A stretch of 64,000 nt of DNA, from positions 224,001-288,000 of the IMG/VR virus record IMGVR_UViG_3300027804_000001; one strand, given 5' to 3'. Positions 1,734-20,530 of this stretch are shown in pieces (the first letter of the stretch is position 1; the number at the start of each line of letters is the position of its first letter). Made by a program: the position numbers and the translations under genes. Source of the stretch: a virus (taxonomy: Duplodnaviria > Caudoviricetes). The notes below the pieces were generated by a model. That model did not search any database and was not told where the DNA came from. It worked only from the letters and a program-made list of their open reading frames with translations.

Positions 1734-2436
1734 AAACAATTAAGTCTTTTATTATTTCGTAAAGTTCTTCATCTTTTTGTAACGGTGTATTTGAAAAAAT
1801 CGAACTCATAGTCATTGTTATTCCTTCACCTGCACCAACTATATCTTTATTTTCTAAAACATCACAGTATTCTTTTATTATCTGTAATTTTTCATAATGT
1901 TTATAGAATTCTTTATAATCATGTTTTTTAAAAACTAAAAAATGTTCCCATATTGTTTCTTTATCCATAAAATCACTGATTTTAGAATTAACATATGCAA
2001 AATACATTTTCCAATCATTTTTAAAAATCAAGTTCATTTCACTTATAGTAAATTTATTAATTCTATGTTTGGATAAATTTTCGATATATGTTATACCATC
2101 TTTAAAATTATAGTTCTTTAGTTTTTTTAAAACTTTAAAGTCGGCATCATATTTCATATCCGCATCTATCACTATTGCAATATCCATATCCAATAATATT
2201 TCTTTTACTAAAAGTATTTTGTCATGATATGATTTTATTTCTTTTTTATAATCAATTACATTAAGTAGAAATGGTGAATATTTTGGATAAAAAAATTCAG
2301 GGTTATCAGTCAAGACATAACACTTATATCCCAACTCCATCAAATTATTTAATTTTCTAACTGTTCCTTTGAAATATTTTTCATCCCCAAAACAAAGAAT
2401 ACCAAATCCTATTTTATTTGTTTGTTCCATAAGCAT
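1726..2436 (-). CDS. putative nucleotide-sugar transferase-like protein
   Basis: 236 aa; YVLTDNP strand and IAIVIDADM DxD motif; lies inside the GT cluster. Confidence 0.5.
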   Translation of the reverse strand: MLMEQTNKIGFGILCFGDEKYFKGTVRKLNNLMELGYKCYVLTDNPEFFYPKYSPFLLNVIDYKKEIKSYHDKILLVKEILLDMDIAIVIDADMKYDADFKVLKKLKNYNFKDGITYIENLSKHRINKFTISEMNLIFKNDWKMYFAYVNSKISDFMDKETIWEHFLVFKKHDYKEFYKHYEKLQIIKEYCDVLENKDIVGAGEGITMTMSSIFSNTPLQKDEELYEIIKDLIVYE

Positions 2437-3058
2437 ATAGACCTAAATGTTTTATTTCCACACTTAATAGTGTATCTATATATACCTTGTGTCCTACATC
2501 TCTTAATTTTTTTAAAACATTAAAATCCTCACCTAACCAATCATTTGATTGTTCATTATATATAAACTCAAAATATGGTTTTTGTACTTGATTAAAAATT
2601 TCCGTTTTCATTAATAAACAACCCATCCCAACACCTTCAACTTCTATTAATTCCTCTTCGACTTTTAATGATAGAAAACTGTCCCAATCGCCCACATTCT
2701 TATATGCTACAGGTTTAATAGGATTGGTTCTTTTTAAGTAATTACATCCCACAATATCTTTATTGTGTTCTAAAAGTCTTAAAGCTGTTGTGGATGGAAA
2801 AACCATATCACTATCCAACCATAAAACATAATCTGAATTTATATTTTTTGCCTCCTCTATTAACTTTTCTCTCTGATTTAATAAAATAGTACTCGAGTCA
2901 AAAAATAAATAAGTATCAATTACCTCACTGGTTGTTTTATATAATTGAGTTAAACTATATGCAAAATGTGTATGAACGGATTCTCTTGTTGGAACTAAAA
3001 TTGATAGTTTTTTATTGTTTCCACTCCACAATGACCCGTTATATAAATTCTTTCTCAT
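2414..3058 (-). CDS. glycosyltransferase family 2-like protein
   Basis: ILVPTR start strand, YVLWLDSDMVFP DxD, VGMGCLLMK and GEDF motifs. Confidence 0.75.
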   Translation of the reverse strand: MRKNLYNGSLWSGNNKKLSILVPTRESVHTHFAYSLTQLYKTTSEVIDTYLFFDSSTILLNQREKLIEEAKNINSDYVLWLDSDMVFPSTTALRLLEHNKDIVGCNYLKRTNPIKPVAYKNVGDWDSFLSLKVEEELIEVEGVGMGCLLMKTEIFNQVQKPYFEFIYNEQSNDWLGEDFNVLKKLRDVGHKVYIDTLLSVEIKHLGLYAYGTNK

Positions 3059-3501
3059 AATCCTGGTGTGTTATTTGAAAAACTATCTTCTTGGTTTGAC
3101 ATGTTTTTAGCCAATTTGATTAATTCTTGAATTCTTTTTGAAAATAGTTGGTAGTCTTTTATTGGTAATTGACTTATTAATGAATAAGTTTCTTTAGTAA
3201 ATGTATTTGTGGTTACAATTTCAATCGCACCGATTCTTGCCCATTTCTCAATTAAAGAAATTCTTGAAATATTTTCATTGTTCTCTAAAATACCTCGTAA
3301 CCTTTCTTGATTTAGATTATTTAAAATCTCAACCAAAATTTCTCTTTCTTCTCTTGCATTTTTGGAAAAAAACGAAAGAAATTTAAGTCTTTTGATTCTT
3401 TTAATTAATCTGATTAGTTTTTCCCTATCATGATCAACTCCTGACCATATTATATAGGTTAATTCGTATTTAGATGGAAATGATTTATAACTCAAATTCA
3501 T
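3055..3501 (-). CDS. hypothetical protein
   Basis: 148 aa ORF with ATG start and 4-nt overlap with the downstream gene. Confidence 0.7.
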   Translation of the reverse strand: MNLSYKSFPSKYELTYIIWSGVDHDREKLIRLIKRIKRLKFLSFFSKNAREEREILVEILNNLNQERLRGILENNENISRISLIEKWARIGAIEIVTTNTFTKETYSLISQLPIKDYQLFSKRIQELIKLAKNMSNQEDSFSNNTPGL

Positions 3502-3850: not shown

Positions 3851-4609
3851 CTATAAACCAAATCTTTTTTTTGTGTTATTATAATTTTGTAAAACTTGAG
3901 TTGAGGTTAAAGCTGTGGAATGTACCATAAGTTGAGCCAATGTACCGTTAAAAACCGAACCATAACTATCCGTACCCACCCCATAACTATCAGAATTACA
4001 CGGTCCCCACATTGTACATATAGCACAAACGGGTCCAGTTGTGTTTGTTATTGTTTTAGTTGCATCAAGTGAACCATTTATATACATTTTCATTGAGGTG
4101 GTTGATTCTTTAACCCACACTAAATTTTTCCAACCTCCTGTATTCACCAATGTTGTTCCTAAATATGTTTGCCACGCACCGTCATAATTCCAATATTCCA
4201 TATATCCATTAACAAGTGTATATGCAATGTTTACCGGACCACCACTACAGTGAGATAAGATACCAACCCTTCCTGTAGTGGTAAATTTACACCATATAGA
4301 TACAGTACAAGTATTTCCCAAATTAAAAGAAGAAAATTTACCCCAGTCATTAGTACCATCGAATACAAATTCGTTATTTTTTCGATTTTTATTATGTGTT
4401 GGGGGGCCGGAAGTAGTTGTAGAATATGTACCACCACCAGAATTATATAAGGTTACGTCTCTTCCGTTTCCACTTAAATCTTTCCATGTTGACCCCGACC
4501 CTGAATATGAGAAACCTCTATCGGAGTCTAAAAATAATTCAATATTTGTTAATACTAAATTATTTAAGTTTTTAATTGAATCAGATTTATTATATGGTCC
4601 TACGTACAT
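3851..4609 (-). CDS. LamG/concanavalin A-like lectin domain virion protein
   Basis: LFLD...SYSGSGSTWKDLSGNG, FVFDGTNDW, MYING, ALTSTQVLQNYN. Confidence 0.8.
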   Translation of the reverse strand: MYVGPYNKSDSIKNLNNLVLTNIELFLDSDRGFSYSGSGSTWKDLSGNGRDVTLYNSGGGTYSTTTSGPPTHNKNRKNNEFVFDGTNDWGKFSSFNLGNTCTVSIWCKFTTTGRVGILSHCSGGPVNIAYTLVNGYMEYWNYDGAWQTYLGTTLVNTGGWKNLVWVKESTTSMKMYINGSLDATKTITNTTGPVCAICTMWGPCNSDSYGVGTDSYGSVFNGTLAQLMVHSTALTSTQVLQNYNNTKKRFGL

Positions 4610-4611
4610 GT

Positions 4612-4643
4612 TTTATAAATTAAATCTTTTTTTTGTTGCATTA
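4612..4643. repeat. 32-bp exact direct repeat, copy 1
   Basis: TTTATAAATTAAATCTTTTTTTTGTTGCATTA; identical copy at 5307-5338. Confidence 0.9.
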
Positions 4644-5305
4644 TAATTATTCAAAATTTCGGCGTCTGTCAATGACCTATTATACACTCTAAAAACATAT
4701 AATTTTCCCGACCAACCACTGGCAATTGTTGCTGCGGTTGTTAAATTCCATGTTGATGTTGCAGTTGAGTTTGCACCTGAGCTGACCTGTTCCACCGTAT
4801 TTTTAAACATTTGTCTATATGGTGTGGTATTTGTCCTTACCCTATAAGAAAAATGTCTAATCCCCGCAGTTAAATCAGAATCATTTGCATATTGTATTCT
4901 TTGGGTTACGTTACAACAACCATTAACGTCAAAATAAGTGTTACCATTACTATAGTATAAATGACTAAAAATTGCTCTTGTATCTGAACCAAGACTTGAG
5001 GTTGCTCTCCAATCAAAAAATGTATTCGTTGTTGCAGACGTTGTTTGAACATATGCTTCAATATAACATTCACTTGTAGATGAAAAACCGAACGTGTTAG
5101 AGGCGGGTCCTGTAAAAACACCACCACTACAATCAAAATAACCCGCAGAGTTCCAAGAAATATTTGCACCAAAACTGTAATTCCTATTACCAGTACTTAA
5201 ATCATACCATGTACTCCCTGAACCTGGATATGATCTATTTACACCCGCATCTAAATGTAAAACTAAACCATTTGTTACTATATTAGGTCCACCGTATGCT
5301 CCCAT
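4613..5305 (-). CDS. LamG-like lectin domain virion protein (paralog 2)
   Basis: NGLVLHLDAG...SYPGSGSTWYDLS and VYNRSLTDAEILNNYN termini shared with neighbours. Confidence 0.8.
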   Translation of the reverse strand: MGAYGGPNIVTNGLVLHLDAGVNRSYPGSGSTWYDLSTGNRNYSFGANISWNSAGYFDCSGGVFTGPASNTFGFSSTSECYIEAYVQTTSATTNTFFDWRATSSLGSDTRAIFSHLYYSNGNTYFDVNGCCNVTQRIQYANDSDLTAGIRHFSYRVRTNTTPYRQMFKNTVEQVSSGANSTATSTWNLTTAATIASGWSGKLYVFRVYNRSLTDAEILNNYNATKKRFNL

Positions 5306-5306
5306 G

Positions 5307-5338
5307 TTTATAAATTAAATCTTTTTTTTGTTGCATTA
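5307..5338. repeat. 32-bp exact direct repeat, copy 2
   Basis: Identical to 4612-4643; encodes the last codons of a LamG gene. Confidence 0.9.
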
Positions 5339-6009
5339 AAAATTTCACCTACTTGTGTTGATGTTAATGCTCTGTTATACATTAAAACTTTCCCAACTTT
5401 ACCATTTACATAGTACGCATTGATTCCAATATCACCACCGATAGACAAAGCACCTGTGTTATAATAATTTCCACCAGATGGTGTTGTGGTTGCAGTCTCA
5501 TCATAATTGTTTCTTATAATTGTTTGTGTATTATCCGTTCTATTTAAAATTGCAGTAAACATTGCCCACGTATTAAAAGTGTAACCGATAAAACCTGTAT
5601 CTGTTCTACTACTTGCATCGTTACCTATCATAAATCTAACACCACTTGGATTGTTAGCACCAATATAATAACCATTAGAACCACCCGACCTTTTTGCAAT
5701 CCATAAATCCCAACCATCTCCAGCAATTGAAGGGTCTGAATTTACCCAACATATTATTGTAAACGACCCACTATTTGGATTTATAGTTGAACTATTTGTA
5801 ATTGAAATATAATCATCTACACCATCAAATGAAAAAACACCACCATTAGAATTATTAAAGGTTGCACCGTTTGTTAATGTCCCGTTATTACCATTTTTAG
5901 ATATATCATAAACATTATTTCCACTACCGATATAGGATCTATATGACCCAGCATCAATAGATAATACTAATCCGTTTCTTGTAAAATTAGGCCCTCTAAA
6001 AATTCCCAT
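5308..6009 (-). CDS. LamG-like lectin domain virion protein (paralog 3)
   Basis: NGLVLSIDAG, FSFDGVDDYI, MYNRALTSTQV. Confidence 0.85.
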   Translation of the reverse strand: MGIFRGPNFTRNGLVLSIDAGSYRSYIGSGNNVYDISKNGNNGTLTNGATFNNSNGGVFSFDGVDDYISITNSSTINPNSGSFTIICWVNSDPSIAGDGWDLWIAKRSGGSNGYYIGANNPSGVRFMIGNDASSRTDTGFIGYTFNTWAMFTAILNRTDNTQTIIRNNYDETATTTPSGGNYYNTGALSIGGDIGINAYYVNGKVGKVLMYNRALTSTQVGEIFNATKKRFNL

Positions 6010-7958
6010 TATTTAATTTTTTGCTCTAACGCCTCGATACGTTTTAATAACTCTTTATTTGTTTCAATTAGTAACGCAACTAATTTTTCATATTTAACAG
6101 CTTTAAATCCATTATTTCTTGTTGTTACAATTTCGGGTAAAACTTTCTCTATTTCTTGAGCAACAACACCAATATCGTGTCCTTCATTTTCATGTATTCC
6201 TTTCATTGGTACCCAATCAAATTCATAACCACTTATTTCGTTTAATTTATCCAATGAACCTTTAATTGGTCTTATATTTGTTTTTAATCTTTCATCAGAA
6301 CCATAATATGCAATTACATCATTTGTGGCTCTTATTAAACCAACAGTTGTTGGTGTTTCGGTTCCAACTCCAAGTGCACCCGAAACATATAGATTTCCGT
6401 CGACATCAACTCTCGCAGATGCGCTTACAGATAAAATTGGTGCACCTGAAATATCACCAACACTAAAAACTGTTCCAAGTAAATCGTCTGTAACCGAAAA
6501 TAATTGACCTTGTGAACCTTGTATATCTACAACAACTGAACCCGATTTATAAATTTCTAATGAACCTGAAATAGACATTACTGTTCCTGTAAATCTTGCA
6601 TTTGATTCAACTGTTACATTTGGTGATGTACTGTTTAATGTTAATAAACCATCATTAAGTGTTCCTGATAATGTTACCGTACCACTACTACCCGATGAAC
6701 CACTACTACCGCTTGAACCCGATGTTCCTGAACTTCCACTACTTCCTGATGTACCACTACTACCAGAACTTCCTGAGGATCCACTTAAACCTGAAGAACC
6801 CGAAGAACCTGATGTTCCACTACTTCCTGATGTACCAGAAGTTCCTGAAGAACCCGATGTACCTGAAGTACCCGAACTACCTGAAGATCCCGAAGAACCT
6901 GAGGTTCCACTAGTTCCTGAAGTACCAGAACTTCCACTAGTTCCACTACTACCACTTGAACCTGAACTACCTGATGATCCACTTGTACCTGAAGTACCCG
7001 AAGAACCATTACTACCACTACTACCACTTGTACCAGAAGAACCTGAGCTTCCTGATGTTCCACTACTTCCACTTGTACCTGAAGTACCACTAGAACCTGA
7101 TGTTCCACTTGTACCATTTATACCTGACGTACCACTTGAACCACTACTACCGTTACTTCCTGATGTTCCACTTGTTCCTGAACTTCCACTAGTACCTGAA
7201 GTACCTCTAGTTCCTGAACTACCAGATGTTCCTGAGGAACCACTTGAACCTGATGTACCGCTAGAACCTGATGTACCAGAACTTCCGCTTGAGCCAGAAG
7301 AACCAGATGTTCCTGAAGAACCTGAAGTACCAGAACTTCCTGATGTTCCGCTGGTACCAGATGAACCATTACTACCACTTGTTCCACTTGTACCAGATGA
7401 ACCATTACTACCACTTGTACCAGATGAACCATTACTACCACTTGTACCAGATGTTCCTGAACTTCCAGAAGAACCTGATGTTCCCGAACTACCACTACTT
7501 CCACTTGTACCTGAAGTACCACTAGTTCCTGAAGTACCTCTAGTTCCTGAACTACCAGATGTTCCTGATGAACCTGAACTACCAGATGTTCCTGATGAAC
7601 CAGAACTTCCTGAAGAACCTGATGTTCCCGATGTTCCACTACTACCACTAGTACCTGAACTTCCAGAAGAACCTGATGTACCACTAGTACCTGAAGTACC
7701 CGATGTCGCAGCCGCAAAAGTGGTACCATTTAACACTAAACTACCAGTAACTCTTAATGAACCTGTGAAATCATGACTATCATCACTTGAATTACCAAAC
7801 TTTGTTGAACCACTGCTAAATGATGCGGTTTGATATATTACCGAAGATGAAATTATGTATTGTTGTGCGACGAGATTACCCTGTATATTTAAATCTCCTG
7901 AGATGTCCGCCGAGCCTGATACAATCAGACCATTTTTGACTTTAAATTCGTTTGCCAT
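6009..7958 (-). CDS. tail fibre with Gly-Ser/Thr-Ser repeat stalk and C-terminal intramolecular chaperone (peptidase S74-like)
   Basis: 649 aa; long GTS/GSS tract; C-terminal SDERLKTNI...GYEFDW...GVVAQE...VKYEKLVALLIE plus coiled coil. Confidence 0.85.
   Translation of the reverse strand: MANEFKVKNGLIVSGSADISGDLNIQGNLVAQQYIISSSVIYQTASFSSGSTKFGNSSDDSHDFTGSLRVTGSLVLNGTTFAAATSGTSGTSGTSGSSGSSGTSGSSGTSGTSGSSGSSGSSGTSGSSGSSGTSGSSGTRGTSGTSGTSGTSGSSGSSGTSGSSGSSGTSGTSGSNGSSGTSGSNGSSGTSGTSGSNGSSGTSGTSGSSGTSGSSGTSGSSGSSGSSGTSGSSGTSGSSGSSGTSGSSGTRGTSGTSGSSGTSGTSGSNGSSGSSGTSGINGTSGTSGSSGTSGTSGSSGTSGSSGSSGTSGSSGSNGSSGTSGTSGSSGSSGSSGSSGTSGSSGTSGTSGTSGSSGSSGSSGTSGTSGSSGTSGTSGSSGTSGSSGSSGLSGSSGSSGSSGTSGSSGSSGTSGSSGSSGSSGSSGTVTLSGTLNDGLLTLNSTSPNVTVESNARFTGTVMSISGSLEIYKSGSVVVDIQGSQGQLFSVTDDLLGTVFSVGDISGAPILSVSASARVDVDGNLYVSGALGVGTETPTTVGLIRATNDVIAYYGSDERLKTNIRPIKGSLDKLNEISGYEFDWVPMKGIHENEGHDIGVVAQEIEKVLPEIVTTRNNGFKAVKYEKLVALLIETNKELLKRIEALEQKIK
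6680..7705 (-). repeat. Gly-X-Y (GTS/GSS) coding repeat, 9-bp degenerate units
   Basis: Roughly 110 consecutive triplets in the 649 aa ORF; boundaries approximate. Confidence 0.9.
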
Positions 7959-8005
7959 TTATTCAAATTAGTTTCATTATCCACTAATGGTGTTTATGTG
8001 TTTAC

Positions 8006-8013
8006 TATAAATA
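8006..8013 (-). promoter_or_regulatory. putative late promoter TATTTATA
   Basis: Between terminator and ATG 7958. Confidence 0.6.
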
Positions 8014-8034
8014 CTAAATCAAAGATTATAAAAT

Positions 8035-8062
8035 AAAAAAGGGGAGAATAAATCTCCCCTTT
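8035..8062 (-). terminator. intrinsic terminator
   Basis: AAAGGGGAGA-TTTAT-TCTCCCCTTT plus T tract, just after the 1694 aa gene. Confidence 0.85.
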
Positions 8063-8081
8063 CATCTAATTTATTTTTATC

Positions 8082-11000
8082 TTATATTGACAACGCTCTT
8101 GCGAACATAACTACACTCCATGTTCCTGATGATGATGTTGCCGTAACCGTTCCACTATTGGAAATTGTAAACGATATTGCTGATGTGTTACCTAAGTCAG
8201 TAGTTGTGGTTTCTGTTAATTTAGATGTTGAACCATCCCATATACCTACAATACTACCTGCTCTCATATTAGAACCATTTTTCACTAAGTAATCAAGAAC
8301 TACACCATTGTAACTTGATAATGTAAACATTGTTGATGATGTACTTACAGATTGATTACTTGTTTGAACATCTACTTTACCATTCATCAAGATATCACCT
8401 GTTAATGATAATGTTGATCCACTAAATGTTAAATTGGTTTCAACCGTTGCATTTGTTCCACTACCATCATATGTTATAACACCATTGTTTGTTGAACCTG
8501 TTAATGTTACAAGTCCTGATGTACCTGATGTACCTGCTGTACCACTTGAACCGCTTGTTCCTGAAGAACCACTTGAACCGCTTGAACCTGAAGTACCAGA
8601 TGTTCCACTTGTACCAGATGAACCCGAAGTACCTGATGTTCCAGAACTTCCTGATGTTCCACTACTTCCTGAAGAACCACTTGTACCAGCAGTTCCTGAT
8701 GAACCTGAACTTCCTGATGTTCCACTACTTCCACTAGTACCTGAACTACCCGATGTTCCTGATGTTCCAGAACTTCCTGAAGAACCAGATGAACCTGATG
8801 AACCTGAGCTACCTGATGAACCAGAAGTTCCCGAAGTACCTGATGAACCAGAAGAACCTGAACTACCACTTGTTCCTGAACTACCAGAAGAACCTGAGCT
8901 TCCTGATGTTCCACTACTTCCACTTGTTCCTGAACTACCACTTGTACCGGCTGTTCCTGAAGAACCACTTGTACCAGCCGTTCCTGAACTACCTGAAGTA
9001 CCTGAGGTTCCACTTGTTCCTGATGAACCAGATGAACCCGATGTACCAGAACTTCCTGATGAACCAGATGTACCCGATGAACCACTTGTACCAGCGGTTC
9101 CTGATGAACCACTTGAACCAGATGTACCCGAAGTACCTGATGAACCACCACCACCTTCACCGAGTGTAACCGCAACTAAACCTGCTTGTGGTGATGAAAA
9201 TCCTATTTCAATATTATATAAGTCAATCGCTTCAATTGTCTGTGGTATAATTGAAAAACCATTTGTATCATAAACTTGTACAACAGGATATTTTGCACCT
9301 AAATCGTGTTGGAATGACCATGTTGTTGAAGGTGAGTTAACGGTTAATGAATTATATGCTCCCACAGTTGTACTACCTGAGCTACCGCTTGTTCCTGAAG
9401 AACCCGATGTACCAGATGTACCTGCAGTACCACTACTTCCTGAAGAACCACTAGAACCTGAAGTTCCACTTGTTCCACTACTTCCTGAACTACCACTAGA
9501 ACCTGAAGTACCTGATGTACCTGAGGTACCACTACTTCCCGAACTACCACTAGAACCTGATGTTCCTGAGGACCCTGAAGTACCAGATGTTCCACTTGTT
9601 CCTGAAGAACCAGATGAACCTGATGTACCACTAGAACCTGATGTACCACTTGAACCAGATGTACCCGAAGTACCTGATGTTCCACTTGTACCATCTGCAC
9701 CTGTAGCACCATCTAAGTTAATTGACCAAGATGAATACGTACCACTACCGATTGTTCCATTTGCATCAGGTGCAGAGAATGTTAATGTTGTACCACTATA
9801 ACTTACTACGTCTGATTCTTGATAATTGTTTACATTATAAGCAATGATGATTGATTGTCCAACTGAGTAACTTAATCCCGTAGGAACTGTAACTGAACCA
9901 CCTTGTCCTAATGTATGTGTTGAATTCGATGTTGTTTTATAAACTTCTGAAGTACCTGAAGTACCTGATGTACCAGCTGTTCCTGAAGAACCACTTGTAC
10001 CCGAAGAACCCGAAGAACCTGATGTTCCAGAAGTTCCTGAACTTCCTGATGAACCACTAGAACCTGATGTTCCTGATGTACCAGATGAACCAGAACTTCC
10101 TGAACTACCACTTGTACCTGAAGTACCCGCAGTTCCAGAACTTCCTGATGAACCACTAGAACCCGAAGTACCACTACTTCCACTTGTTCCTGAACTTCCA
10201 GATGAACCCGAACTTCCACTCGTTCCTGAAGAACCAGATGTACCACTTGTACCGGCAGTTCCACTACTTCCTGAAGAACCTGAACTTCCGCTTGTTCCTG
10301 AAGAACCGGATGTACCTGAACTTCCTGAAGAACCACTAGAACCTGATGTTCCACTTGTTCCACTACTTCCTGAACTACCACTAGAACCACTTGTACCGGC
10401 TGTTCCTGAAGAACCACTTGTACCAGATGTTCCACTACTTCCCGATGTTCCCGCAGTTCCTGAACTACCTGAAGTTCCAGATGTACCAGAAGAACCTGAT
10501 GAACCCGATGTACCCGCAGTTCCAGAACTTCCTGAAGAACCACTAGAACCTGATGTACCAGATGTTCCTGATGAACCACTTGTTCCTGAAGATCCACTTG
10601 AACCTGATGTACCAGATGTACCCGCAGTTCCACTACTACCACTACTTCCACTTGAACCTGAAGTACCAGATGTTCCTGATGAACCACTAGAACCACTTGA
10701 ACCTGAAGTACCACTTGTACCAGATGTACCTGAAGTACCATCAGCACCCGTAGCACCATCTAAGTTAATAACCCAATTAGAATATGTACCGCTACCAATT
10801 GTACCGTTAGCATCTGGAGTATCAACTGTTATTGTTGTTCCACTATATGAAACCACATGAGACTCTTGATAATTGTTGACATCATACGCTATGATAATAG
10901 ACTGACCAACAGTGTAACTTAATCCACTTGGTACAGTAAATGACCCCGAATTACCTAATGTATGTGTGGTTGTTGATATTGTTTTATAAACTTCCGAAGT

Positions 11001-13166
11001 ACCTGATGTACCCGATGTACCCGCAGTTCCACTACTTCCTGATGAACCCGAAGAACCTGATGTACCTGATGTTCCACTTGTACCAGCGGTTCCTGATGAA
11101 CCACTAGAACCTGAAGTACCTGACGTACCACTACTTCCTGATGAACCACTAGAACCCGAAGTACCAGAAGAACCTGACGTACCTGATGAACCAGAACTTC
11201 CTGAAGAACCACTTGTACCAGATGTACCACTTGTTCCTGAAGAACCCGAACTTCCTGAAGAACCAGATGTTCCACTTGTACCAGATGAGCCATCACTACC
11301 ACTAGTTCCTGAAGTACCAGATGTACCAGATGAACCTGAGGTACCAGATGTTCCTGATGAACCACTAGAACCTGATGTTCCTGAAGTACCTGAACTTCCT
11401 GAAGTACCAGATGAACCACTAGAACCTGAAGTTCCACTTGTTCCACTACTTCCTGAACTACCACTAGAACCACTTGTTCCTGAGGTACCAGATGAACCCG
11501 AGGTACCAGATGAACCTGATGTACCTGAACTTCCAGATGTTCCACTTGTACCACTTGAACCACTTGAACCCGAACTTCCGCTTGTACCAGATGTTCCGCT
11601 TGAACCCGAGGTACCGGACGAACCAGAACTTCCTGAAGAACCACTTGTACCAGATGTACCAGCCGTTCCCGAACTTCCTGAAGATCCACTAGAACCTGAT
11701 GTTCCTGAAGTTCCAGAACTTCCAGATGTACCTGAAGAACCATCTGCACCTGTTGCACCATCTAAATTGATAGTCCATGATGAATATGTACCACTACCAA
11801 TAGTACCATTAGAATCTGGTGCTGTAAACGTTAAAGTAGTACCACTATATGATACTACATCCGATTCTTGGTAGTTATTTACGTTATATGCTATTATAAT
11901 TGATTGACCAACGGTATAACTTAAACCACTCGGTACAGTTAATGAACCCGCTTGTCCTAAAGTAAATGTATCTGTTGATGTTGTTTTATAGACCTCTGAG
12001 GTACCTGATGAACCACTTGTACCAGCTGTTCCTGATGAACCACTCGTTCCCGAACTTCCTGAACTACCACTAGAACCCGATGTACCTGAAGTACCAGATG
12101 TTCCACTTGTTCCTGAACTTCCTGAACTACCACTAGAACCTGAAGTACCTGAAGTACCTGAAGTACCACTACTTCCACTTGTTCCTGCTGTTCCCGAACT
12201 TCCTGATGAACCACTAGAACCTGATGTTCCTGATGTTCCACTTGTACCACTTGAACCATCACTACCACTGGTTCCCGAACTTCCTGATGAACCACTAGAA
12301 CCTGATGTTCCTGATGTACCACTAGAACCTGATGTTCCTGAACTACCAGATGTACCCGCAGTACCACTTGTTCCTGAAGAACCGGATGTACCTGAACTTC
12401 CTGAAGATCCACTAGAACCAGAAGAACCTGATGTTCCTGAAGTACCGGCAGTACCTGAACTTCCTGAAGATCCACTTGTACCTGATGTACCAGAACTACC
12501 GCTTGTACCTGAAGTGCCTGAACTTCCTGATGTACCACTAGAACCTGAGGTACCAGCTGTTCCTGATGAACCACTAGAACCTGATGTTCCTGATGAACCA
12601 TTACTTCCCGAAGAACCACTTGAACCAGAACTACCACTTGTACCTGAAGTACCTGAGCTTCCCGATGTACCAGATGAACCTGATGTTCCTGACGTACCCG
12701 AAGTTCCAGATGAACCACTAGTACCACTAGAACCACTTGAACCCGAAGTACCTGAACTTCCTGAAGAACCAGATGTACCTGATGATCCACTTGTTCCTGA
12801 TGTACCACTAGAACCTGATGTTCCTGAAGTACCCGATGTTGCAGCCGTATATTCAGTACCATTTATTGATAACGAACCTGTAACTGAAAAAGAACCAGTA
12901 AATTGATGTGTATCGTCTAAACTATCACCAAATTTTGTGGAACCAGAAGAAAATGACGTTGTAATATAACTTACAGAAGATGAGACTATAAATTGATTGG
13001 CGGACAAATTACCACCAACAACTAAATCACCACTAATATTTTGACTACCTGAAACATTTAATGAACCTGTTACACTTAACGATCCAGATATTTGTGAGGA
13101 GCCTGTTATATTTGCTCCACCCTGGTCAACAATTAGACCATTTTTTACTATAAATTGATTTGCCAT
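8082..13166 (-). CDS. giant fibre protein with five Gly-Ser/Thr-Ser tracts separated by globular modules
   Basis: 1694 aa; three copies of an EVYKT...W.INLDG module and one WSFQHDLG..YP module; N-terminus homologous to the 649 aa fibre. Confidence 0.8.
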   Translation of the reverse strand: MANQFIVKNGLIVDQGGANITGSSQISGSLSVTGSLNVSGSQNISGDLVVGGNLSANQFIVSSSVSYITTSFSSGSTKFGDSLDDTHQFTGSFSVTGSLSINGTEYTAATSGTSGTSGSSGTSGTSGSSGTSGSSGSSGTSGSSGSSGTSGSSGTSGTSGTSGSSGTSGSSGTSGTSGSSGSSGSSGSNGSSGTSGSSGSSGTAGTSGSSGTSGSSGTSGTSGSSGTSGTSGSSGSSGTAGTSGTSGSSGSSGSSGSSGTSGSSGTSGTAGTSGSSGTSGSSGTSGTSGSSGSSGSSGTSGSDGSSGTSGTSGTSGSSGSSGSSGTAGTSGSSGTSGTSGTSGSSGSSGSSGTSGTSGTSGTSGSSGSSGSSGTSGSSGTAGTSGSSGTSEVYKTTSTDTFTLGQAGSLTVPSGLSYTVGQSIIIAYNVNNYQESDVVSYSGTTLTFTAPDSNGTIGSGTYSSWTINLDGATGADGSSGTSGSSGTSGTSGSSGSSGSSGTAGTSGTSGSSGSSGSSGTSGSSGTSGTSGSSGSSGSSGTSGTSGSSGTSGSSGTSGSSGTSGTSGSSGSSGSSGTSGTSGSSGSSGTSGSSGTSGTSGSSGSSGTSGTSGSSGTSGTSGTSGSDGSSGTSGTSGSSGSSGSSGTSGTSGTSGSSGSSGSSGTSGSSGTSGSSGSSGSSGTSGTSGSSGSSGTAGTSGTSGTSGSSGSSGSSGTAGTSGTSGTSEVYKTISTTTHTLGNSGSFTVPSGLSYTVGQSIIIAYDVNNYQESHVVSYSGTTITVDTPDANGTIGSGTYSNWVINLDGATGADGTSGTSGTSGTSGSSGSSGSSGTSGTSGSSGSSGSSGTAGTSGTSGSSGSSGTSGSSGTSGTSGSSGSSGSSGTAGTSGSSGSSGTSGTSGSSGTAGTSGSSGTSGTSGSSGTAGTSGSSGSSGSSGTSGTSGSSGSSGSSGTSGSSGTSGSSGSSGSSGTAGTSGTSGSSGTSGSSGSSGSSGTSGSSGTSGSSGSSGSSGTAGTSGTSGSSGSSGSSGTSGTSGSSGSSGSSGTSGTSGSSGSSGTSGSSGTAGTSGTSGTSEVYKTTSNSTHTLGQGGSVTVPTGLSYSVGQSIIIAYNVNNYQESDVVSYSGTTLTFSAPDANGTIGSGTYSSWSINLDGATGADGTSGTSGTSGTSGSSGTSGSSGTSGSSGSSGTSGTSGTSGSSGTSGSSGSSGSSGTSGTSGTSGSSGSSGSSGTSGTSGSSGSSGSSGTAGTSGTSGSSGTSGSSGSTTVGAYNSLTVNSPSTTWSFQHDLGAKYPVVQVYDTNGFSIIPQTIEAIDLYNIEIGFSSPQAGLVAVTLGEGGGGSSGTSGTSGSSGSSGTAGTSGSSGTSGSSGSSGTSGSSGSSGTSGTSGTSGSSGTAGTSGSSGTAGTSGSSGTSGSSGTSGSSGSSGSSGTSGSSGSSGSSGTSGTSGSSGSSGSSGSSGSSGSSGTSGTSGSSGTSGSSGTSGSSGSSGTAGTSGSSGSSGTSGSSGTSGTSGSSGTSGTSGTSGSSGSSGSSGTSGSSGTAGTSGTSGLVTLTGSTNNGVITYDGSGTNATVETNLTFSGSTLSLTGDILMNGKVDVQTSNQSVSTSSTMFTLSSYNGVVLDYLVKNGSNMRAGSIVGIWDGSTSKLTETTTTDLGNTSAISFTISNSGTVTATSSSGTWSVVMFARALSI
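8515..12835 (-). repeat. interrupted Gly-X-Y (GTS/GSS/GTA) coding repeat region
   Basis: Tracts at about 11997-12833, 10990-11757, 9950-10755, 9370-9715 and 8515-9140. Confidence 0.9.
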
Positions 13167-13200
13167 TTCTTCTTCTTTGTTTTTATTACACTAAGTCTTT

Positions 13201-13208
13201 TATAAATA
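13201..13208 (-). promoter_or_regulatory. putative late promoter TATTTATA
   Basis: Upstream of ATG 13166. Confidence 0.6.
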
Positions 13209-13253
13209 TTTCATTATTCGATTAGTTTATTACTTTTGATAAAAAACTTTTTA

Positions 13254-15482
13254 TTATAAAAATGTCGTCATTGACTTGAATGTCCAATTCGCACTTGCGT
13301 TTACTTTCAATTCAACATGACCTTCATTTGAAACCGTTACATCAAAAGATGCATCACTTGTATCTCCAATATCTGCCGTTGTTGTTTCATTAAAATTTAC
13401 ACTATTATTATTCCACACCGCAACAACTATACCCGCTCTCGCATTTGAATTATCATAAATTGTATAATTGTAAAACGCTGACGTGTATGAACCCGTTAAT
13501 GTTGACACTACAGTATTAGAACCTGGTGAAACATTTGACAATGAATTTTTTAGTTGTGCGTTGGTAACATCAATACTACCTGTAACAATTAATGATCCTG
13601 ATATGGTTGTATCATTACCTATTGTTACTATAGTTCCTGTATCAACAATAGATGAGTTTGTAACACCTGTTGCCGATTCAAATTTGACAACAGTATTTAC
13701 ATTACCATTAATTGAAACTGATGTTCCACTTGTTCCTGAAGTACCCCCACTTCCACTAGTTCCAGATGTTCCACTAGAACCTGATGTACCCGAAGTTCCA
13801 GATGATCCACTACTACCGCTAGTACCACTTGTGCCTGATGTTCCTGAAGTTCCTGCTGAACCTGAAGTACCACTACTACCACTTGTGCCCGATGTTCCTG
13901 AAGTACCGGCTGAACCCGATGTTCCACTACTACCGCTAGTACCCGAAGAACCAGAACTTCCACTTGTTCCCGAAGTACCAGAACTTCCACTTGTTCCCGA
14001 AGTACCGGCTGAACCTGATGTTCCACTACTACCAGATGAACCACTACTACCACTTGTACCAGCAGTGCCACTACTACCACTTGTACCGGCAGTACCACTA
14101 CTACCACTAGTACCTGATGAACCACCACCACCTTCACCGAGTGTTGCAACTACAATACCCGCAATTGGTTGTGAAAATGTAATTGTTGCATTGTATAAAT
14201 CAACCGCTAAAATCTCTTGAGGTATAACTTGGTAACCATATTCATCAAATACTTGAAATACGGGATATCTTGCACCTAAATCATGATTAAAATACCACAC
14301 GTCTGACGGTGTTGTAACCGTCATTGATTCATAAGCACCTACTGTTGTACTACCTGAAGAACCCGAACTACCTGATGTTCCACTAGTTCCTGAAGTACCA
14401 CTACTTCCTGAACTACCTGAAGTACCTGAGGTTCCACTAGTTCCCGATGTACCACTAGTACCGGCAGTACCACTACTACCACTTGTACCCGAAGTACCGG
14501 ATGAACCATTACCACCAATCGTTGCAATTACTGTACCTGCTGTTGGTAATGCAAAATAAACATCTAAATTATTTGCATCTAATACTTTAATTTCAGTTGG
14601 GATGATGACCCTATCACTGTTATCAAAAACATTAATTGCTGGATATTTGTAATCTAAATTGTGATTAAAAGACCATGTTGTTTGTTGTGAACTCACAACA
14701 AGTGTTCTTGTCATACCCGAAACAGGGTATGCAGAATCAACATAATTTACTAAAGAGGCCGATAATGCCGATACATTGAATGTTACTTCTTTAATGTAAC
14801 CGTTATCATTTGTATCAACCATTGATGTGGTGATTTCTAAACCACCTTCACCGATAAATTCAACAACATCTGAACCTGTTGCTCTAACTAAATCCTGACC
14901 TTCAACAAATATATCTCTAAAGTGTGAACCAATAGAAACAAATGCGGTACCATCAAAAGATTCACTAACATTTAATCCCGTACTATCGTCAAATTGTAAT
15001 TTGGTAAATTGTTTATCATATGTATTACCATCAACATCAGAACCTGAAATATGAAATGGTACATTTGTTAAACCTAAACCACTACCTGTAAATTCTGTTG
15101 CAGTAATTGAACCTGTTACAGATAAATTTACATTAACTTGTAAACCATCTTCATCAATAGATGCGGTCGCATTACCACTTGCAATTTGAGATAAGTTTAA
15201 TCCTGTGATACCACTTGCCGGAATATTATAAAGACCTTGTCCATCACCTATGAATGAACCCGTAAAAAATGATGCTGTTACATTATCTGTTAGATAAATT
15301 GAACCTGTATTAACCGTGTTTGTTGCAACTAATTCTTGTATTGAAGGACCTAACGCACCTGAAACCGCAAAAAATACTTTACCGTCAGTAGTATTAATTG
15401 ATAATTCCCCTAGTTGTAGATTAGCGTTGGTCGGTTTCCTACCCGATACAGCGCTCCTACGTAGCTTTACTATTTGTGCCAT
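13254..15482 (-). CDS. tail fibre protein with tropism-determinant-like N-terminus and Gly-Ser/Thr-Ser tracts
   Basis: 742 aa; MAQIVKLRRS...P....LQLGELSINTTDGKVF head-attachment-type N-terminus; two W.FNH.L..YP modules. Confidence 0.75.
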   Translation of the reverse strand: MAQIVKLRRSAVSGRKPTNANLQLGELSINTTDGKVFFAVSGALGPSIQELVATNTVNTGSIYLTDNVTASFFTGSFIGDGQGLYNIPASGITGLNLSQIASGNATASIDEDGLQVNVNLSVTGSITATEFTGSGLGLTNVPFHISGSDVDGNTYDKQFTKLQFDDSTGLNVSESFDGTAFVSIGSHFRDIFVEGQDLVRATGSDVVEFIGEGGLEITTSMVDTNDNGYIKEVTFNVSALSASLVNYVDSAYPVSGMTRTLVVSSQQTTWSFNHNLDYKYPAINVFDNSDRVIIPTEIKVLDANNLDVYFALPTAGTVIATIGGNGSSGTSGTSGSSGTAGTSGTSGTSGTSGTSGSSGSSGTSGTSGTSGSSGSSGSTTVGAYESMTVTTPSDVWYFNHDLGARYPVFQVFDEYGYQVIPQEILAVDLYNATITFSQPIAGIVVATLGEGGGGSSGTSGSSGTAGTSGSSGTAGTSGSSGSSGSSGTSGSAGTSGTSGSSGTSGTSGSSGSSGTSGSSGTSGSAGTSGTSGTSGSSGTSGSAGTSGTSGTSGTSGSSGSSGTSGTSGSSGTSGTSGSGGTSGTSGTSVSINGNVNTVVKFESATGVTNSSIVDTGTIVTIGNDTTISGSLIVTGSIDVTNAQLKNSLSNVSPGSNTVVSTLTGSYTSAFYNYTIYDNSNARAGIVVAVWNNNSVNFNETTTADIGDTSDASFDVTVSNEGHVELKVNASANWTFKSMTTFL

Positions 15483-15546
15483 ATATATGGTTCCCTCAAT
15501 CGAATGTGGTATGTACCACGGTTAATTAGACTTATATAAGTCTTTC

Positions 15547-15554
15547 TATAAATA
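15547..15554 (-). promoter_or_regulatory. putative late promoter TATTTATA
   Basis: Between terminator and ATG 15482. Confidence 0.6.
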
Positions 15555-15578
15555 CATAAAAATTTCGTTTGTGTAAAT

Positions 15579-15605
15579 AAAAAAAGGGAGAGTTTTTACT
15601 CTCCC
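15579..15605 (-). terminator. intrinsic terminator
   Basis: GGGAGAGT-AAAA-ACTCTCCC followed by T7. Confidence 0.85.
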
Positions 15606-15633
15606 CCTTATTTAATTTATAAATGTTATAATT

Positions 15634-17961
15634 TTAGTAAGATCCACCATCGATGACTGTTGAGAACTTCAATGAACCATCAGAATTTTTGTATCCTAAA
15701 ATACCATCAAGAACATCAGTTGTTTCGGTAGTCGAAACAAAACCAACAACGTTTGAAGAATTTCTGAACATGATTGTAGATGTTTTATTTCCGTTGTCAG
15801 TTCCTCCTGAATATGATAATGTGAAGTTACCACTTATTGATGTATCACCCGTTCCTGAATCAACTGTGAATTTATTTGTATTAAATGCTAAAGTTGTTCC
15901 AAGATAAGTCAATAAACTATCTGCTATGTGGTCATCATCAACCGCAATTGGGAAGTGACCAACTGTTAAACCTGTTTCTTCACCTAATGAACCTGTATTT
16001 TTTGGTCCCGCAATAAAACGAGCTGAAGCGTATGAGGATCCCGAAGGATTTGCATAAATCCAAACATTATTTTGTGAATCCCAAAGTAATGACCCTGTTA
16101 CACCAACATTTGATCCTGAATCATAAACATCAATTCCTGCAAATCTTTCAAATGGTGAATAGGTATTGAGTAATATTTTATTTGTTCCAATATCAACTTG
16201 AGATCCTGATAATGTAATAATTGAACCTGTACCTAAAACTTGGAAGTTTCCTGATACATACATGTTACCATGTACAGTTAAATCATTATCGAAAGCCGAA
16301 TTACCATTTACATTTAGACTACCACTTAATCTAAAATTAACATTATCTAAAGTTAAACTACCTGTATTATCTAAGAATACACTATGTGTAACATTAGATG
16401 TCACATCCCAAGTATTTAATTCAATACCTCTTTGTTCAACCAATAAATTATTGATTCCCATTTCATCATTTGCTACCGATATTGTTGTTGTACCATTAAT
16501 ATCAGCATAACTACCAGTAAATCCACCAGGTATTGTTAAATTACCATTAACATCAAAATTTAATGTTTTTGATACTCCATTATAATTTGTTATTAATGTA
16601 ATAGACTCTTCGTCACTATAGTTTCTTAATGAGAATGTATCGTTAGAGTATAATCTAAGGTCATCACCGGCAGTTATAGTTACATCGGTGTCCGCTTCAA
16701 AAGTTAAATCACTACTTGAACTAACAAATAAATCGTTACCATCCTCGGTTTTTATATTTAACGAGCCGGAGGTGATAATATCAACACCACCAACAGATTC
16801 AATACTAATTTTTGATAAACTATCATCAATTTTTAAAAAATTGGTGTCATCACCAAAGAAATTATAAGTAGCATTACCTTTAAAATGAATGTCCGAAGGC
16901 GCTGTATTATAAATTTGAAATAATCTTGAGTCGTTTTTGTCTGGTTTCAAATATAATGAACCCGTACCTTGGATATCAGTTACTTCAAGTGCTCCCGATA
17001 AGTTTAAATTACCGTTATCAAATGTTAAACCACTATAATCTGTAAGTATACCATCAGTACCAACAACAACTAATCTTTTCTCTGTTAAATCATCTAAGTA
17101 AACTGAACCAGATAATATTGTTGTTCCTGTAACTGTTAAGTCACCTGGTAATTCTAAATTTGTTGTTGAAACTTGACCGATATTAATATTTTCAATAAAC
17201 GCAGTTCCACTAACATATAAATCTTTCCATGCATTTGTTGGTGAACCTAAATCAAATAGATTTGAACCTGATGGAACAAGGGATGAACTAATTTCAGCGT
17301 TTAAGTCAATAACATCACCACCTTGATTATCACCGATGGTAATGTTACCTTTCATAGTGATTGAACCTGAGGTTCTAATATTACCTGTGTTGTTGTCAAC
17401 TTCAAATTGACCTTGACCTATATTAAATGTTGAACCATCAAATGTTAAATTTGGACTATCTTCAAGTATCCCACCTGTACCAACAAGAACTAATCTATTG
17501 TCAGTTAATCCTGTAATTGTAACATCACCATTAAAAGTTGTATCACCTGTTACATTCAAAGCGGATGCACTAACAAATGTGTCAAAAACACCTGTATTAC
17601 CTGTTAAGTTATTAATAGTAACACCACTTATAACATTACCTTCAATATTACCTGTTAAATCCATAGTAATATTTCCTACGTTACTTAAAAGATATAATGT
17701 TTGGTCAGTAGAACTATAAAAAGGTGTACCATTTAATGTTGATCCGTAACTACCTCCCGTTAAATCGGGTGCAACTGAACCTTGATATATTTTAGATAGT
17801 GTTCTAAAGGCTCCAGCTGAACCCTCGGTTTCACCAACAAAAATCCAAGGACCGTTCATGTTACCAACCGAACCGGTTGCCATTACTAATTCGCCCTTTT
17901 TAGCTGTTGCAGAAACTAAGGAGTCAATCGAACCCCTTCTGTGTTTAATTATTTGTGCCAT
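15634..17961 (-). CDS. tail fibre-like beta-rich virion protein
   Basis: 775 aa; MAQIIKHRRG...GELVMATGS N-terminus paralogous to the 742 aa gene; GSLLWDS motif shared with the next gene. Confidence 0.7.
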   Translation of the reverse strand: MAQIIKHRRGSIDSLVSATAKKGELVMATGSVGNMNGPWIFVGETEGSAGAFRTLSKIYQGSVAPDLTGGSYGSTLNGTPFYSSTDQTLYLLSNVGNITMDLTGNIEGNVISGVTINNLTGNTGVFDTFVSASALNVTGDTTFNGDVTITGLTDNRLVLVGTGGILEDSPNLTFDGSTFNIGQGQFEVDNNTGNIRTSGSITMKGNITIGDNQGGDVIDLNAEISSSLVPSGSNLFDLGSPTNAWKDLYVSGTAFIENINIGQVSTTNLELPGDLTVTGTTILSGSVYLDDLTEKRLVVVGTDGILTDYSGLTFDNGNLNLSGALEVTDIQGTGSLYLKPDKNDSRLFQIYNTAPSDIHFKGNATYNFFGDDTNFLKIDDSLSKISIESVGGVDIITSGSLNIKTEDGNDLFVSSSSDLTFEADTDVTITAGDDLRLYSNDTFSLRNYSDEESITLITNYNGVSKTLNFDVNGNLTIPGGFTGSYADINGTTTISVANDEMGINNLLVEQRGIELNTWDVTSNVTHSVFLDNTGSLTLDNVNFRLSGSLNVNGNSAFDNDLTVHGNMYVSGNFQVLGTGSIITLSGSQVDIGTNKILLNTYSPFERFAGIDVYDSGSNVGVTGSLLWDSQNNVWIYANPSGSSYASARFIAGPKNTGSLGEETGLTVGHFPIAVDDDHIADSLLTYLGTTLAFNTNKFTVDSGTGDTSISGNFTLSYSGGTDNGNKTSTIMFRNSSNVVGFVSTTETTDVLDGILGYKNSDGSLKFSTVIDGGSY

Positions 17962-17986
17962 TTTATATTATTGTTCTTTTTATTTA

Positions 17987-17994
17987 TATAAATA
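17987..17994 (-). promoter_or_regulatory. putative late promoter TATTTATA
   Basis: Upstream of ATG 17961. Confidence 0.6.
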
Positions 17995-18006
17995 CTTTAT
18001 TTTAAA

Positions 18007-18765: not shown

Positions 18766-18815
18766 TTGGAAAGTAAAGTCTTTTACATAAATACTTTTAT
18801 AAAATTTATGTGCAT

Positions 18816-18846
18816 AAAAAAAGAGGGAAAAACCCTCTTTTTTTTT
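18816..18846. terminator. symmetric (bidirectional-looking) intrinsic terminator
   Basis: AAAAAAAGAGGG-AAAAA-CCCTCTTTTTTTTT. Confidence 0.8.
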
Positions 18847-18851
18847 ATTTT

Positions 18852-19426: not shown

Positions 19427-19427
19427 A

Positions 19428-20495: not shown

Positions 20496-20530
20496 AAAAA
20501 AATTATAGGAATTATTTTTAATAAAATAAA

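Follow-up and report, generated by a model that had tools for sequence, protein, structure and literature searches.

Proline-free Gly-X-Y shafts in putative tail fibres of an uncultured freshwater giant phage

Introduction

The stability of the collagen helix is today put down to imino acids, to hydroxyproline, to pairs of charged residues or to Thr glycosylated at the Y position of the Gly-X-Y triplet. A 64,000-nucleotide (nt) stretch of a virus of the Caudoviricetes (IMG/VR record IMGVR_UViG_3300027804_000001, positions 224,001 to 288,000), called the window below and numbered from its own first letter, contains three genes, A, B and C, whose products carry long Gly-X-Y tracts built almost only from Gly, Ser and Thr. 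This locus raises the question of what kind of protein such genes encode and what structure a Gly-X-Y repeat of this composition would adopt. The analysis described here suggests that genes A, B and C probably belong to an uncultured giant phage of fresh water and encode modular, homotrimeric fibres of its virion, most likely tail fibres, and that their shafts are triple helices of the collagen type.

Gly-X-Y tracts of genes A, B and C

A six-frame scan of the window for (G-x-x)n tracts of at least five triplets found exactly eight tracts, all of them on the minus strand between 6675 and 14516. Together they hold 557 triplets, 19 to 114 in each uninterrupted tract, with no lapse of Gly inside any of them, which bears out a preliminary description of several hundred strict triplets (GTS, GSS and a few others) over three genes. 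That description had set the limits at 6680-14515; it is to be amended in that the genes are read on the minus strand and that globular domains of about 70-80 amino acids (aa) break the tracts of genes B and C. All eight tracts show the periodicity over many uninterrupted triplets that characterizes the collagen-like family PF01391, and the Pfam Collagen scores of the three genes are 82-486 bits against a cut-off of 27.2. When the residues of gene A were shuffled (n=2,000), the longest in-phase Gly run was 3.8 on average and 8 at most, in comparison with the 114 observed. The three genes and their parts, with tracts as located by the scan, are as follows.

6009..7958, minus strand: gene A, a 649-aa fibre with N-terminal anchor, 114-triplet shaft, stalk and S74 chaperone (open reading frame (ORF), Pfam, PHROG, ortholog on contig L135)
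7701..7958, minus strand: gene A N-terminal domain, aa 1-86 (57% identity to the gene B N-terminus, E 9e-37)
6675..7700, minus strand: gene A tract, 114 triplets (about 98 nm if triple-helical)
6300..6674, minus strand: gene A post-collagen stalk/tip region, aa 429-553 (unrelated sequence at this place in the L135 ortholog)
6012..6299, minus strand: gene A Peptidase_S74 intramolecular chaperone, aa 554-649 (Pfam, SDERLK motif)
8082..13166, minus strand: gene B, a beaded fibre of 1,694 aa (Pfam Collagen 1e-149, PHROG)
11997..12833, minus strand: gene B tract 1, 93 triplets
10995..11759, minus strand: gene B tract 2, 85 triplets
9948..10757, minus strand: gene B tract 3, 90 triplets
9369..9710, minus strand: gene B tract 4, 38 triplets
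8508..9155, minus strand: gene B tract 5, 72 triplets
8085..8507, minus strand: gene B C-terminal domain, aa 1554-1694 (36% identity to the gene C C-terminus, E 4e-15)
13254..15482, minus strand: gene C, a fibre of 742 aa (Pfam Collagen 3e-23, PHROG)
14346..14516, minus strand: gene C tract 1, 19 triplets
13719..14132, minus strand: gene C tract 2, 46 triplets

Two kinds of triplet, GSS (254) and GTS (250), make up most of the tracts, followed by GTA (24) and a few GSN, GSD, GTR and GSA. Thr and Ser are about equally frequent at X (277 and 268), and Y is Ser in 505 triplets (91%), Ala in 27 and Thr in 5. Pro, Lys, Glu and Cys are absent, and only 7 of the 1,114 X and Y positions are charged (5 Asp and 2 Arg, 0.6%), so that the repeat is indeed free of Pro and poor in charge, unlike characterised collagens, as first described. 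No turn motif occurs in the tracts, which reach 342 residues, and Gly amounts to exactly 1 in 3. Codon usage is mixed: Gly is encoded by GGT (356) and GGA (194), and both TCN and AGY are used for Ser. Tandem Repeats Finder reported only degenerate arrays, with periods that are all multiples of 9 nt and mostly 60-80% match.

Architecture and identity of the fibre genes

Each shaft lies between folded parts. Beside the tracts, gene A has the S74 chaperone, and genes B and C have two kinds of small domain, termed the D1 and D2 knots, and unclassified end domains. The order in gene B is N-terminus, tract of 93 triplets, D1, tract of 85, D1, tract of 90, D1, tract of 38, D2, tract of 72 and C-terminal domain; that in gene C is an N-terminal part of 251 aa, D2, tract of 19, D2, tract of 46 and C-terminal domain. 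In gene A, Pfam found Collagen (1e-49) and Peptidase_S74 (PF13884; 4e-17), the latter with 62.6 bits against a cut-off of 22 over aa 554-611 of 649, that is, at the extreme C-terminus. At the cleavage site of S74 proteins such as endosialidase, a catalytic Ser is followed by a Lys five residues downstream. The SDERLK sequence from aa 554 of gene A provides this Ser...Lys spacing with Ser554 and Lys559. The S74 region also matches the PDB tail-fibre chains 8jov and 6f45, and the C-terminus of gene A is 75-82% identical in many homologs.

The best PHROG matches of genes A, B and C are tail-fibre families, and tblastn with the C-terminal third of gene A retrieved annotated long tail-fibre distal subunits in many cultured phages. 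The C-terminal domain of gene B, a candidate for the distal or receptor-binding end, is found again as the C-terminal end of fibre ORFs from other viral contigs. The N- and C-terminal end domains had no match in sequence searches of Pfam and the PDB, nor had the gene A stalk in Pfam. Genes A, B and C are flanked by a fibre-like 775-aa gene and by LamG genes; judged by homology to fibre families and by these surroundings, all three appear to be phage tail-fibre genes.

These features suggest how the fibres may be organized. The N-terminal domain common to A and B would serve for attachment to the virion, the domain common to B and C would be distal, and the D1/D2 knots would divide the shafts of B and C into segments. 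S74 chaperones are known to make phage fibres and spikes fold as trimers, from which they then cleave themselves off. Likewise, the S74 domain of gene A would trimerise the chain and then cut itself off.

Selection on the repeat and modularity of the shaft

An ortholog of gene A on the IMG/VR contig L135 shares the N-terminal domain at about 90% identity; its tract has 147 triplets rather than 114, and its C-terminal part is different. Comparison of the 114 aligned triplets, within which position-by-position orthology is uncertain, revealed that none of the 114 Gly residues is changed while 64 of their codons (56%) differ at the third base. At Y, 11 of 114 residues are changed and Ser is kept in 103, with codon bases 1 and 2 differing in about half; at X, 36 of 114 are changed, mostly between Ser and Thr. 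The single indel inside the tract alignment comprises 21 residues, a multiple of three. Because Gly is unchanged in spite of the third-base differences, this comparison of coding sequences indicates purifying selection on Gly, and on Ser at Y, that is, on the protein, in line with the earlier suggestion, made from the mixed synonymous codons, that the repeat is conserved at the protein level. This conclusion on the pattern is independent of the exact orthology, since the G-[S/T]-S pattern is kept at a DNA divergence near saturation.

The asymmetry between X and Y is not confined to the window. In 24,338 triplets of 136 ORFs from IMG/VR, GSS accounts for 42% and GTS for 39%, and GST and GTT for 2% each. 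Such strictness goes beyond what a flexible Gly/Ser/Thr linker would need and points to a defined structure.

The shaft as a whole is less constant than its pattern. Contigs L001 and L002 contain 57% identical relatives of the 775-aa gene of the window. L002 is the nearest relative where the flanking genes are concerned; its own fibre genes (12527-22308 of that contig) are homologous at the N- and C-terminal ends and contain no Gly-X-Y tract. No Gly-X-Y tracts were found in L001-L005 (relatives of the 775-aa neighbour) or in the cultured phages S-SRM01 and HTVC008M, which share the S74 end. As L002 is devoid of the tract, and L135 differs in tract length and distal part, the shaft is an exchangeable, length-variable module. 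L002 therefore offers a natural comparison for the contribution of the collagen-like shaft.

Assembly and reading frame

Two artefacts could mimic such tracts, namely short-read mis-joining of low-complexity repeats and the shadow of a gene on the opposite strand. Shadow frames do occur. A blastn match to Erwinia phage pEa_SNUABM_48 (MW879340.1, 2595-4364) was rejected on this ground: the real gene there encodes a 590-aa protein in which (V/E)PEVP repeats give way to a long C-terminus free of repeats, and the 34-triplet Gly-Thr-Ser frame on the opposite strand is spurious. Nucleotide matches to G-[S/T]-S tracts therefore need a frame check. In the window, the situation is reversed, with plus-strand "PEVPDVP" ORFs as the shadow frames, confined to the tracts. 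Only the minus-strand Gly-X-Y frame continues into conserved non-repeat domains, including S74, and the neighbouring genes all lie on the same strand.

Regarding mis-joining, no independent contig spans a whole tract, and many contig joints among tracts have sides of 20-30 nt, which is repeat noise. Tract lengths given here are those assembled from short reads. However, the longest exact direct repeat in 6001-15500 is only 59 nt, which makes gross mis-assembly unlikely, and difference-free contigs from four runs of four studies (two DNA and two RNA libraries, the latter being no proof of transcription) cover tract interiors as well as tract-domain borders. The sequence is present in freshwater and river metagenomes of 16 studies, and the L135 ortholog has the same architecture. 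An artefactual origin of the tracts is thus hardly credible.

Word depth over the tracts (6548-13027, lake runs X1 and X6) is tens to hundreds of times that of the flanking non-repeat parts. It is attributed to cross-mapping of similar G-[S/T]-S coding tracts from many other organisms, which are abundant in the samples.

Knot domains D1 and D2

The knots that interrupt the shafts are of two types: D1, of about 79 aa, with three copies in gene B, and D2, of about 71 aa, with one copy in gene B and two in gene C.

11760..11996, minus strand: D1 knot copy 1, gene B aa 391-469 (alignment of relatives, AlphaFold2 (AF2))
10758..10994, minus strand: D1 knot copy 2, gene B aa 725-803 (alignment of relatives)
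9711..9947, minus strand: D1 knot copy 3, gene B aa 1074-1152 (alignment of relatives)
9156..9368, minus strand: D2 knot, gene B aa 1267-1337 (alignment, AF2, PHROG 21918)
14517..14729, minus strand: D2 knot copy a, gene C aa 252-322 (alignment of relatives)
14133..14345, minus strand: D2 knot copy b, gene C aa 380-450 (alignment of relatives, AF2)

With the alignments of relatives, AF2 confidently predicted both to be small all-beta domains (predicted local distance difference test score (pLDDT) 91.9 for D1, with six strands, and 90.4 for D2). D2 has the invariant pattern W..H.L...D...P...F...G. Neither knot belongs to a Pfam family, and Foldseek against the PDB at E<=0.001 gave no match; weaker rows for D1, to beta-barrel parts of tailspikes and ATPases, were not significant and were discarded.

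With 5,353 cluster representatives at E<=1e-3, D1 forms a very large family, and a protein can hold up to 11 copies. Among the top 149 family members, 229 of 389 copies directly adjoin a Gly-X-Y tract. The adjoining tracts of at least eight triplets (n=223) comprise 126 with at least 10% Pro (GPT, GPQ), 45 of intermediate content and 37 with less than 3% Pro, as well as 15 that are Pro-free and rich in Ser/Thr. D1 is thus mostly embedded between collagen-like tracts of any composition. As one D1 scaffold bears both Pro-rich and G-[S/T]-S tracts, the two types are argued to be structurally equivalent, and the gradation suggests that the G-[S/T]-S shafts represent one end of a compositional continuum.

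Conformation of the shafts

The preliminary description had considered two folds for the repeat, a collagen helix and a polyproline-II (PPII) bundle. Known PPII bundles consist of short helices joined by turns, with Gly well above 1 in 3 and often with disulfides. If the tracts folded back into such a PPII/polyglycine-II bundle, as in snow-flea antifreeze protein or the tip of T-even gp38, their abundant hydroxyl side chains could form arrays binding ice or polysaccharide, which would agree with the tripeptide Gly periodicity and with the cold freshwater origin of the runs that contain the sequence. However, tracts of 19-114 triplets with Gly exactly 1 in 3, no turn motif and no Cys do not have the features of these bundles, the fibre end domains and the S74 chaperone are typical of elongated trimers, and nothing in the gene neighbourhood suggests ice binding. 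A bundle is therefore very improbable here, ice binding is unsupported, and of the two folds proposed, the collagen type is favoured.

A collagen-type triple helix is the best-supported reading of the shafts and may be called fairly likely. Besides the exact Gly periodicity over long tracts with neither turns nor Cys, it is favoured because gene A ends in a chaperone known from trimeric fibres and because the D1 knot elsewhere mostly adjoins ordinary Pro-containing collagen-like tracts. PDB sequence matches of the tract itself (collagens I and VI, 8zxl) reflected only the Gly periodicity and were set aside, and a trimer prediction with three copies of gene B aa 355-505 (tract, D1, tract) gave a score of 0.03, which weighs neither way.

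Several points weigh against a triple helix. Ser and Thr perform poorly in triple helices according to host-guest peptide data, and a Gly/Ser-rich sequence is the classic composition of a flexible linker. When PMC3368898 and PMC11923368 are taken as standards, none of the known collagen stabilisers (imino acids, hydroxyproline, KGE/KGD pairs) is found in the tracts. EPclA depends on Pro at X and on charged residues (PMC3368898), and unglycosylated (Gly-Pro-Thr)10 is a random coil (PMC11923368). KGE/KGD salt bridges have been proposed as a collagen folding device across all domains of life and viruses (PMC11923368), and the tracts do not contain such triplets. In animal collagens, three or more Pro-free triplets seldom follow one another (PMC13138384). 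The D1 and D2 knots fold as monomeric beta domains in AF2, without significant similarity to known trimerisation modules, and the homologous tract-less fibres of L002 indicate that the shaft type is dispensable. The lack of whole-tract contigs, the absence of a GT9/TibC-type gene from the window and the more distant transferase loci described below belong on the same side.

The main rival is that the tracts are flexible, PPII-biased and probably heavily O-glycosylated tethers, similar to mucins or GS linkers, which space the knots and the tip from the virion, with the chains joined only at folded domains. Such tethers would be in keeping with the composition of almost only Gly, Ser and Thr, with the behaviour of the unglycosylated peptide, with the glycosyltransferase genes downstream and with the relative that builds homologous fibres without tracts. 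However, a disordered linker needs no strict Gly at every third residue, and Gly does not lapse once in the 557 triplets here; among the matches listed, single tracts of relatives reach 843 triplets. The conservation of Gly against the ortholog at near-saturated synonymous divergence, the strict preference for Ser at Y and the presence of one and the same knot among Pro-rich collagen-like tracts are also difficult to reconcile with disorder. On balance, the tether is the less likely explanation, with perhaps one chance in a handful.

In the triple-helical reading, each shaft would consist of three PPII strands, with every third residue, the Gly, buried at the centre. A rise of 0.286 nm per residue would make the shaft of gene A a thin rod of about 98 nm, that of gene C one of about 56 nm and that of gene B one of about 324 nm, to which the knots would add; shaft length would be tuned by gain or loss of whole triplets. 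As neither imino acids nor salt bridges are available, the helix would have to be held by other means: by the folded domains as nucleation and registration clamps, by hydration networks of the Ser/Thr hydroxyls and possibly by O-glycosylation through the phage transferases encoded downstream. The more specific proposal, that the G-[S/T]-S shafts are true triple helices stable without imino acids or salt bridges owing to hydroxyl hydration, phage O-glycans or both, together with beta-knot clamps, is put forward tentatively, at slightly less than an even chance.

The shafts lack the first three of the stabilisers named at the outset and have Ser rather than Thr at Y, and at the same time selection on the protein is strong and such shafts abound in the viromes of lakes and rivers. 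If the proposal is true, a third, uncharacterised way of stabilising a collagen helix would exist in thousands of fibres of aquatic phages, including fibres in which one tract alone exceeds 800 triplets, and the KGE/KGD folding code proposed as universal (PMC11923368) would have a natural counter-example. Triple-helical shafts would also provide a simple, repetitive and length-tunable natural system for studying the minimal chemistry of the collagen helix, and recombinant collagen-like materials could use them as a scaffold. Such shafts would account for the very long thin fibres that giant aquatic phages obtain from cheap sequence (about 0.1-0.3 micrometre here, longer in relatives), and could link virion glycosylation to fibre assembly. 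If the tracts are disordered glycosylated tethers instead, they would constitute a different and also little-described fibre design.

Downstream genes and possible glycosylation

Stabilisation of the fibre by glycosylation had been suggested in the preliminary description. Gene A is followed on its own strand, in this order, by three LamG genes, the gene for a 148-aa protein, an Anp1-like gene, one unclassified gene and the Methyltransf_24 and GT2-like genes.

3851..6009, minus strand: three tandem LamG/ConA-like genes of 252, 230 and 233 aa (Pfam Laminin_G_3 for two; the third has the same PHROGs)
3055..3501, minus strand: 148-aa protein of no family (49-50% identical at the same position in L131 and L133; present in 15 of the 15 closest loci)
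2414..3058, minus strand: Anp1-like (GT62-like) glycosyltransferase, 214 aa (Pfam Anp1, 30.3 bits against a cut-off of 28.8)
993-1739, minus strand: Methyltransf_24 gene (Pfam)
145-996, minus strand: GT2-like gene (Pfam)

The LamG trio sits between gene A and the pair of 148-aa and transferase genes and is absent at the L135 ortholog locus; the three genes may have been inserted as a set, as lectin-like accessories of the fibre or as adhesins. The Methyltransf_24/GT2-like block also adjoins G-[S/T]-S fibres on contigs L038 and L089. In L131 and L133 (contigs of 136 and 214 kb, L133 also with the Gp23 marker), the Anp1-like transferase is 60% identical and lies downstream of a homologous fibre gene, directly upstream of which are genes for a 709-aa GT9 protein, a Methyltransf_24 protein and a GT4 protein. 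A GT9 gene adjoins the fibre in the relatives L131, L132 and L133; no GT9 domain (Glyco_transf_9) was found in the 36 window proteins scanned against Pfam.

The Anp1-like transferase has 417 relatives in IMG/VR. In 12 of the 15 closest loci (55-85% identity), a Pro-free tract ends 1.2-1.8 kb upstream on the same strand, and two of the remaining three have too little upstream DNA to tell. Among 65 more distant loci (46-52% identity), a tract was found in none, and at least 41 have a match to an S74-type fibre, which was directly upstream of the transferase in all four loci inspected. Since the transferase pair also follows S74 fibres without tracts, the linkage is to the fibre family and not to the tract. 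The gene trio therefore supports glycosylation of the fibre in general and no specific role in stabilising the tract; glycosylation is plausible without being specific to the tracts, and of the earlier suggestion this much can be retained.

A conserved trio of an S74-terminated fibre, a protein of about 150-190 aa and an Anp1-like transferase of about 215 aa, with or without collagen tracts, is widespread in IMG/VR.

Occurrence in other phages and metagenomes

The fold had at first been described as an unusual one. A singular fold is not supported, as the class is common: thousands of metagenomic proteins contain G-[S/T]-S tracts by sequence. A word-based search with gene A found 2,364 proteins at E<=1e-3 among 8,000 candidates scored, and the 120 matches listed are nearly all Pro-free and rich in GSS/GTS, many with S74, on contigs of up to 334 kb. 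A degenerate DNA pattern of 20 triplets (G, then Ser/Thr-like residues at X and Y) occurs at no fewer than 119 loci, that is, at least 119, of IMG/VR. Of 136 ORFs selected from these matches, 102 have no Pro at all, although some small ORFs in this tally may be shadow frames such as that of the Erwinia phage. The IMG/VR matches listed include an ORF with 952 triplets and an unbroken tract of 843.

In the uncultured 735-kb phage LR756501.1 (389275-414287), an unannotated ORF of 3,488 aa contains 827 triplets, mostly GTS, with single tracts of 246, 308 and 238, and the adjoining ORFs have Pro-rich collagen-like repeats of GPT/GPQ. Both shaft chemistries therefore coexist in one phage. A literature search for the Pro-free G-S/T-S class and for Gly-Ser-Ser or Gly-Thr-Ser collagen-like repeats found no description. 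Taken as a kind, the collagen-like phage tail fibre is known; its Pro-free, charge-free G-[S/T]-S variant is widespread and biophysically uncharacterised.

A cultured phage may carry a fibre gene of this class under another annotation. In positions 1-3050 of Microcystis phage Mel-JY01 (PP395634.1), the minus-strand "hypothetical proteins" at 1-651 and 739-2298 read as repeats of PEVP/LVPE and have the appearance of shadow ORFs. On the plus strand, a frame stays open for more than 1,000 aa; it holds 202 Gly-X-Y triplets (GTS 77, GSS 57) and a folded C-terminal part with a D2-like motif. The fibre gene of Mel-JY01 was probably annotated on the wrong strand.

Comparison with known systems

The C-terminal domain of gene A, with its Ser...Lys motif, is a Peptidase_S74 domain (PF13884), as in endosialidase and the T5 L-shaped fibre. 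In the characterised cases, the chaperone folds stalks of the triple beta-helix or beta-prism type; an S74 chaperone behind a long collagen-like shaft is not known to have been studied. The 709-aa GT9 protein immediately upstream of the fibre in L131 and L133 recalls the autotransporter heptosyltransferases TibC and Aah with their Ser-rich adhesins, whereas the window itself has no GT9 gene.

EPclA and EPclB of Escherichia coli O157:H7 prophages (PMC3368898) share with genes A, B and C a modular and exchangeable Gly-X-Y shaft between folded ends. They also have trimerisation modules beside the collagen part, for which the S74 chaperone of gene A and perhaps the knots and end domains of genes B and C are candidate counterparts. 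Unlike the present shafts, EPclA has Pro in about half of the X positions and many charged residues, and its triple helix was shown experimentally, with a melting temperature of 42 C; the fibres predicted here have no Pro, 0.6% charge, tracts of 19-114 triplets and a D1/D2-beaded shaft. P-SSM2 orf028 and similar cyanophage candidates (PMC1079782) likewise belong to large aquatic myophages and are proposed tail fibres, with about half of the protein being Gly-X-Y and with Ser/Thr frequent at X and Y. By description, P-SSM2 orf028 has Pro as well ("often proline, serine, or threonine", PMC1079782), in contrast to the strictly Pro-free G-[S/T]-S repeat.

In BclA of Bacillus anthracis/cereus and in Riftia cuticle collagen (PMC8968730, PMC11923368), hydroxy amino acids replace hydroxyproline, as they would here, and glycosylation has been proposed or demonstrated as a stabiliser of the helix. 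These proteins have Pro at X and glycosylated Thr at Y (GPT), whereas the tracts of the window have Thr at X, Ser at Y and no Pro; the Gly-Pro-Thr arrangement with Thr as acceptor at Y is thus not found (Ser at 505 and Thr at 5 of the 557 Y positions). The nearby transferases are also of other families, namely Anp1-like and GT2 in the window and GT9 in relatives.

Upstream region and other features of the window

The remaining features in the vicinity are a gene upstream of gene C and two hairpins.

15634..17961, minus strand: fibre-like gene of 775 aa without collagen tracts (weak matches to annotated tail-fibre genes)
8037..8063, minus strand: terminator-like hairpin 3' of gene B (11-pair stem, then a T run)
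15582..15609, minus strand: terminator-like hairpin 3' of the 775-aa gene, upstream of gene C (12-pair stem, then a T run)

The 775-aa protein starts with MAQI.K.RR, which is also the pattern of the first residues of gene C. The motif TATTTATARWAA upstream of genes A and C was not significant, with two or more matches in 9 of 100 shuffles. The sequence TATTTATAG(T/A)AA occurs at 8002-8013 and 15543-15554 on the minus strand, 45-60 nt 5' of the ATG of genes A and C; each copy lies right behind a terminator hairpin, and these two copies, the only ones in the window, are not significant in comparison with shuffles. Megablast of the flanking 6.5 kb against cultured phages gave no match. The wider window codes for a sigma factor, ClpP, NusG, an SbcC-like protein, a primase and a Dam methylase, and the G+C content outside the fibre genes is about 26-36%.

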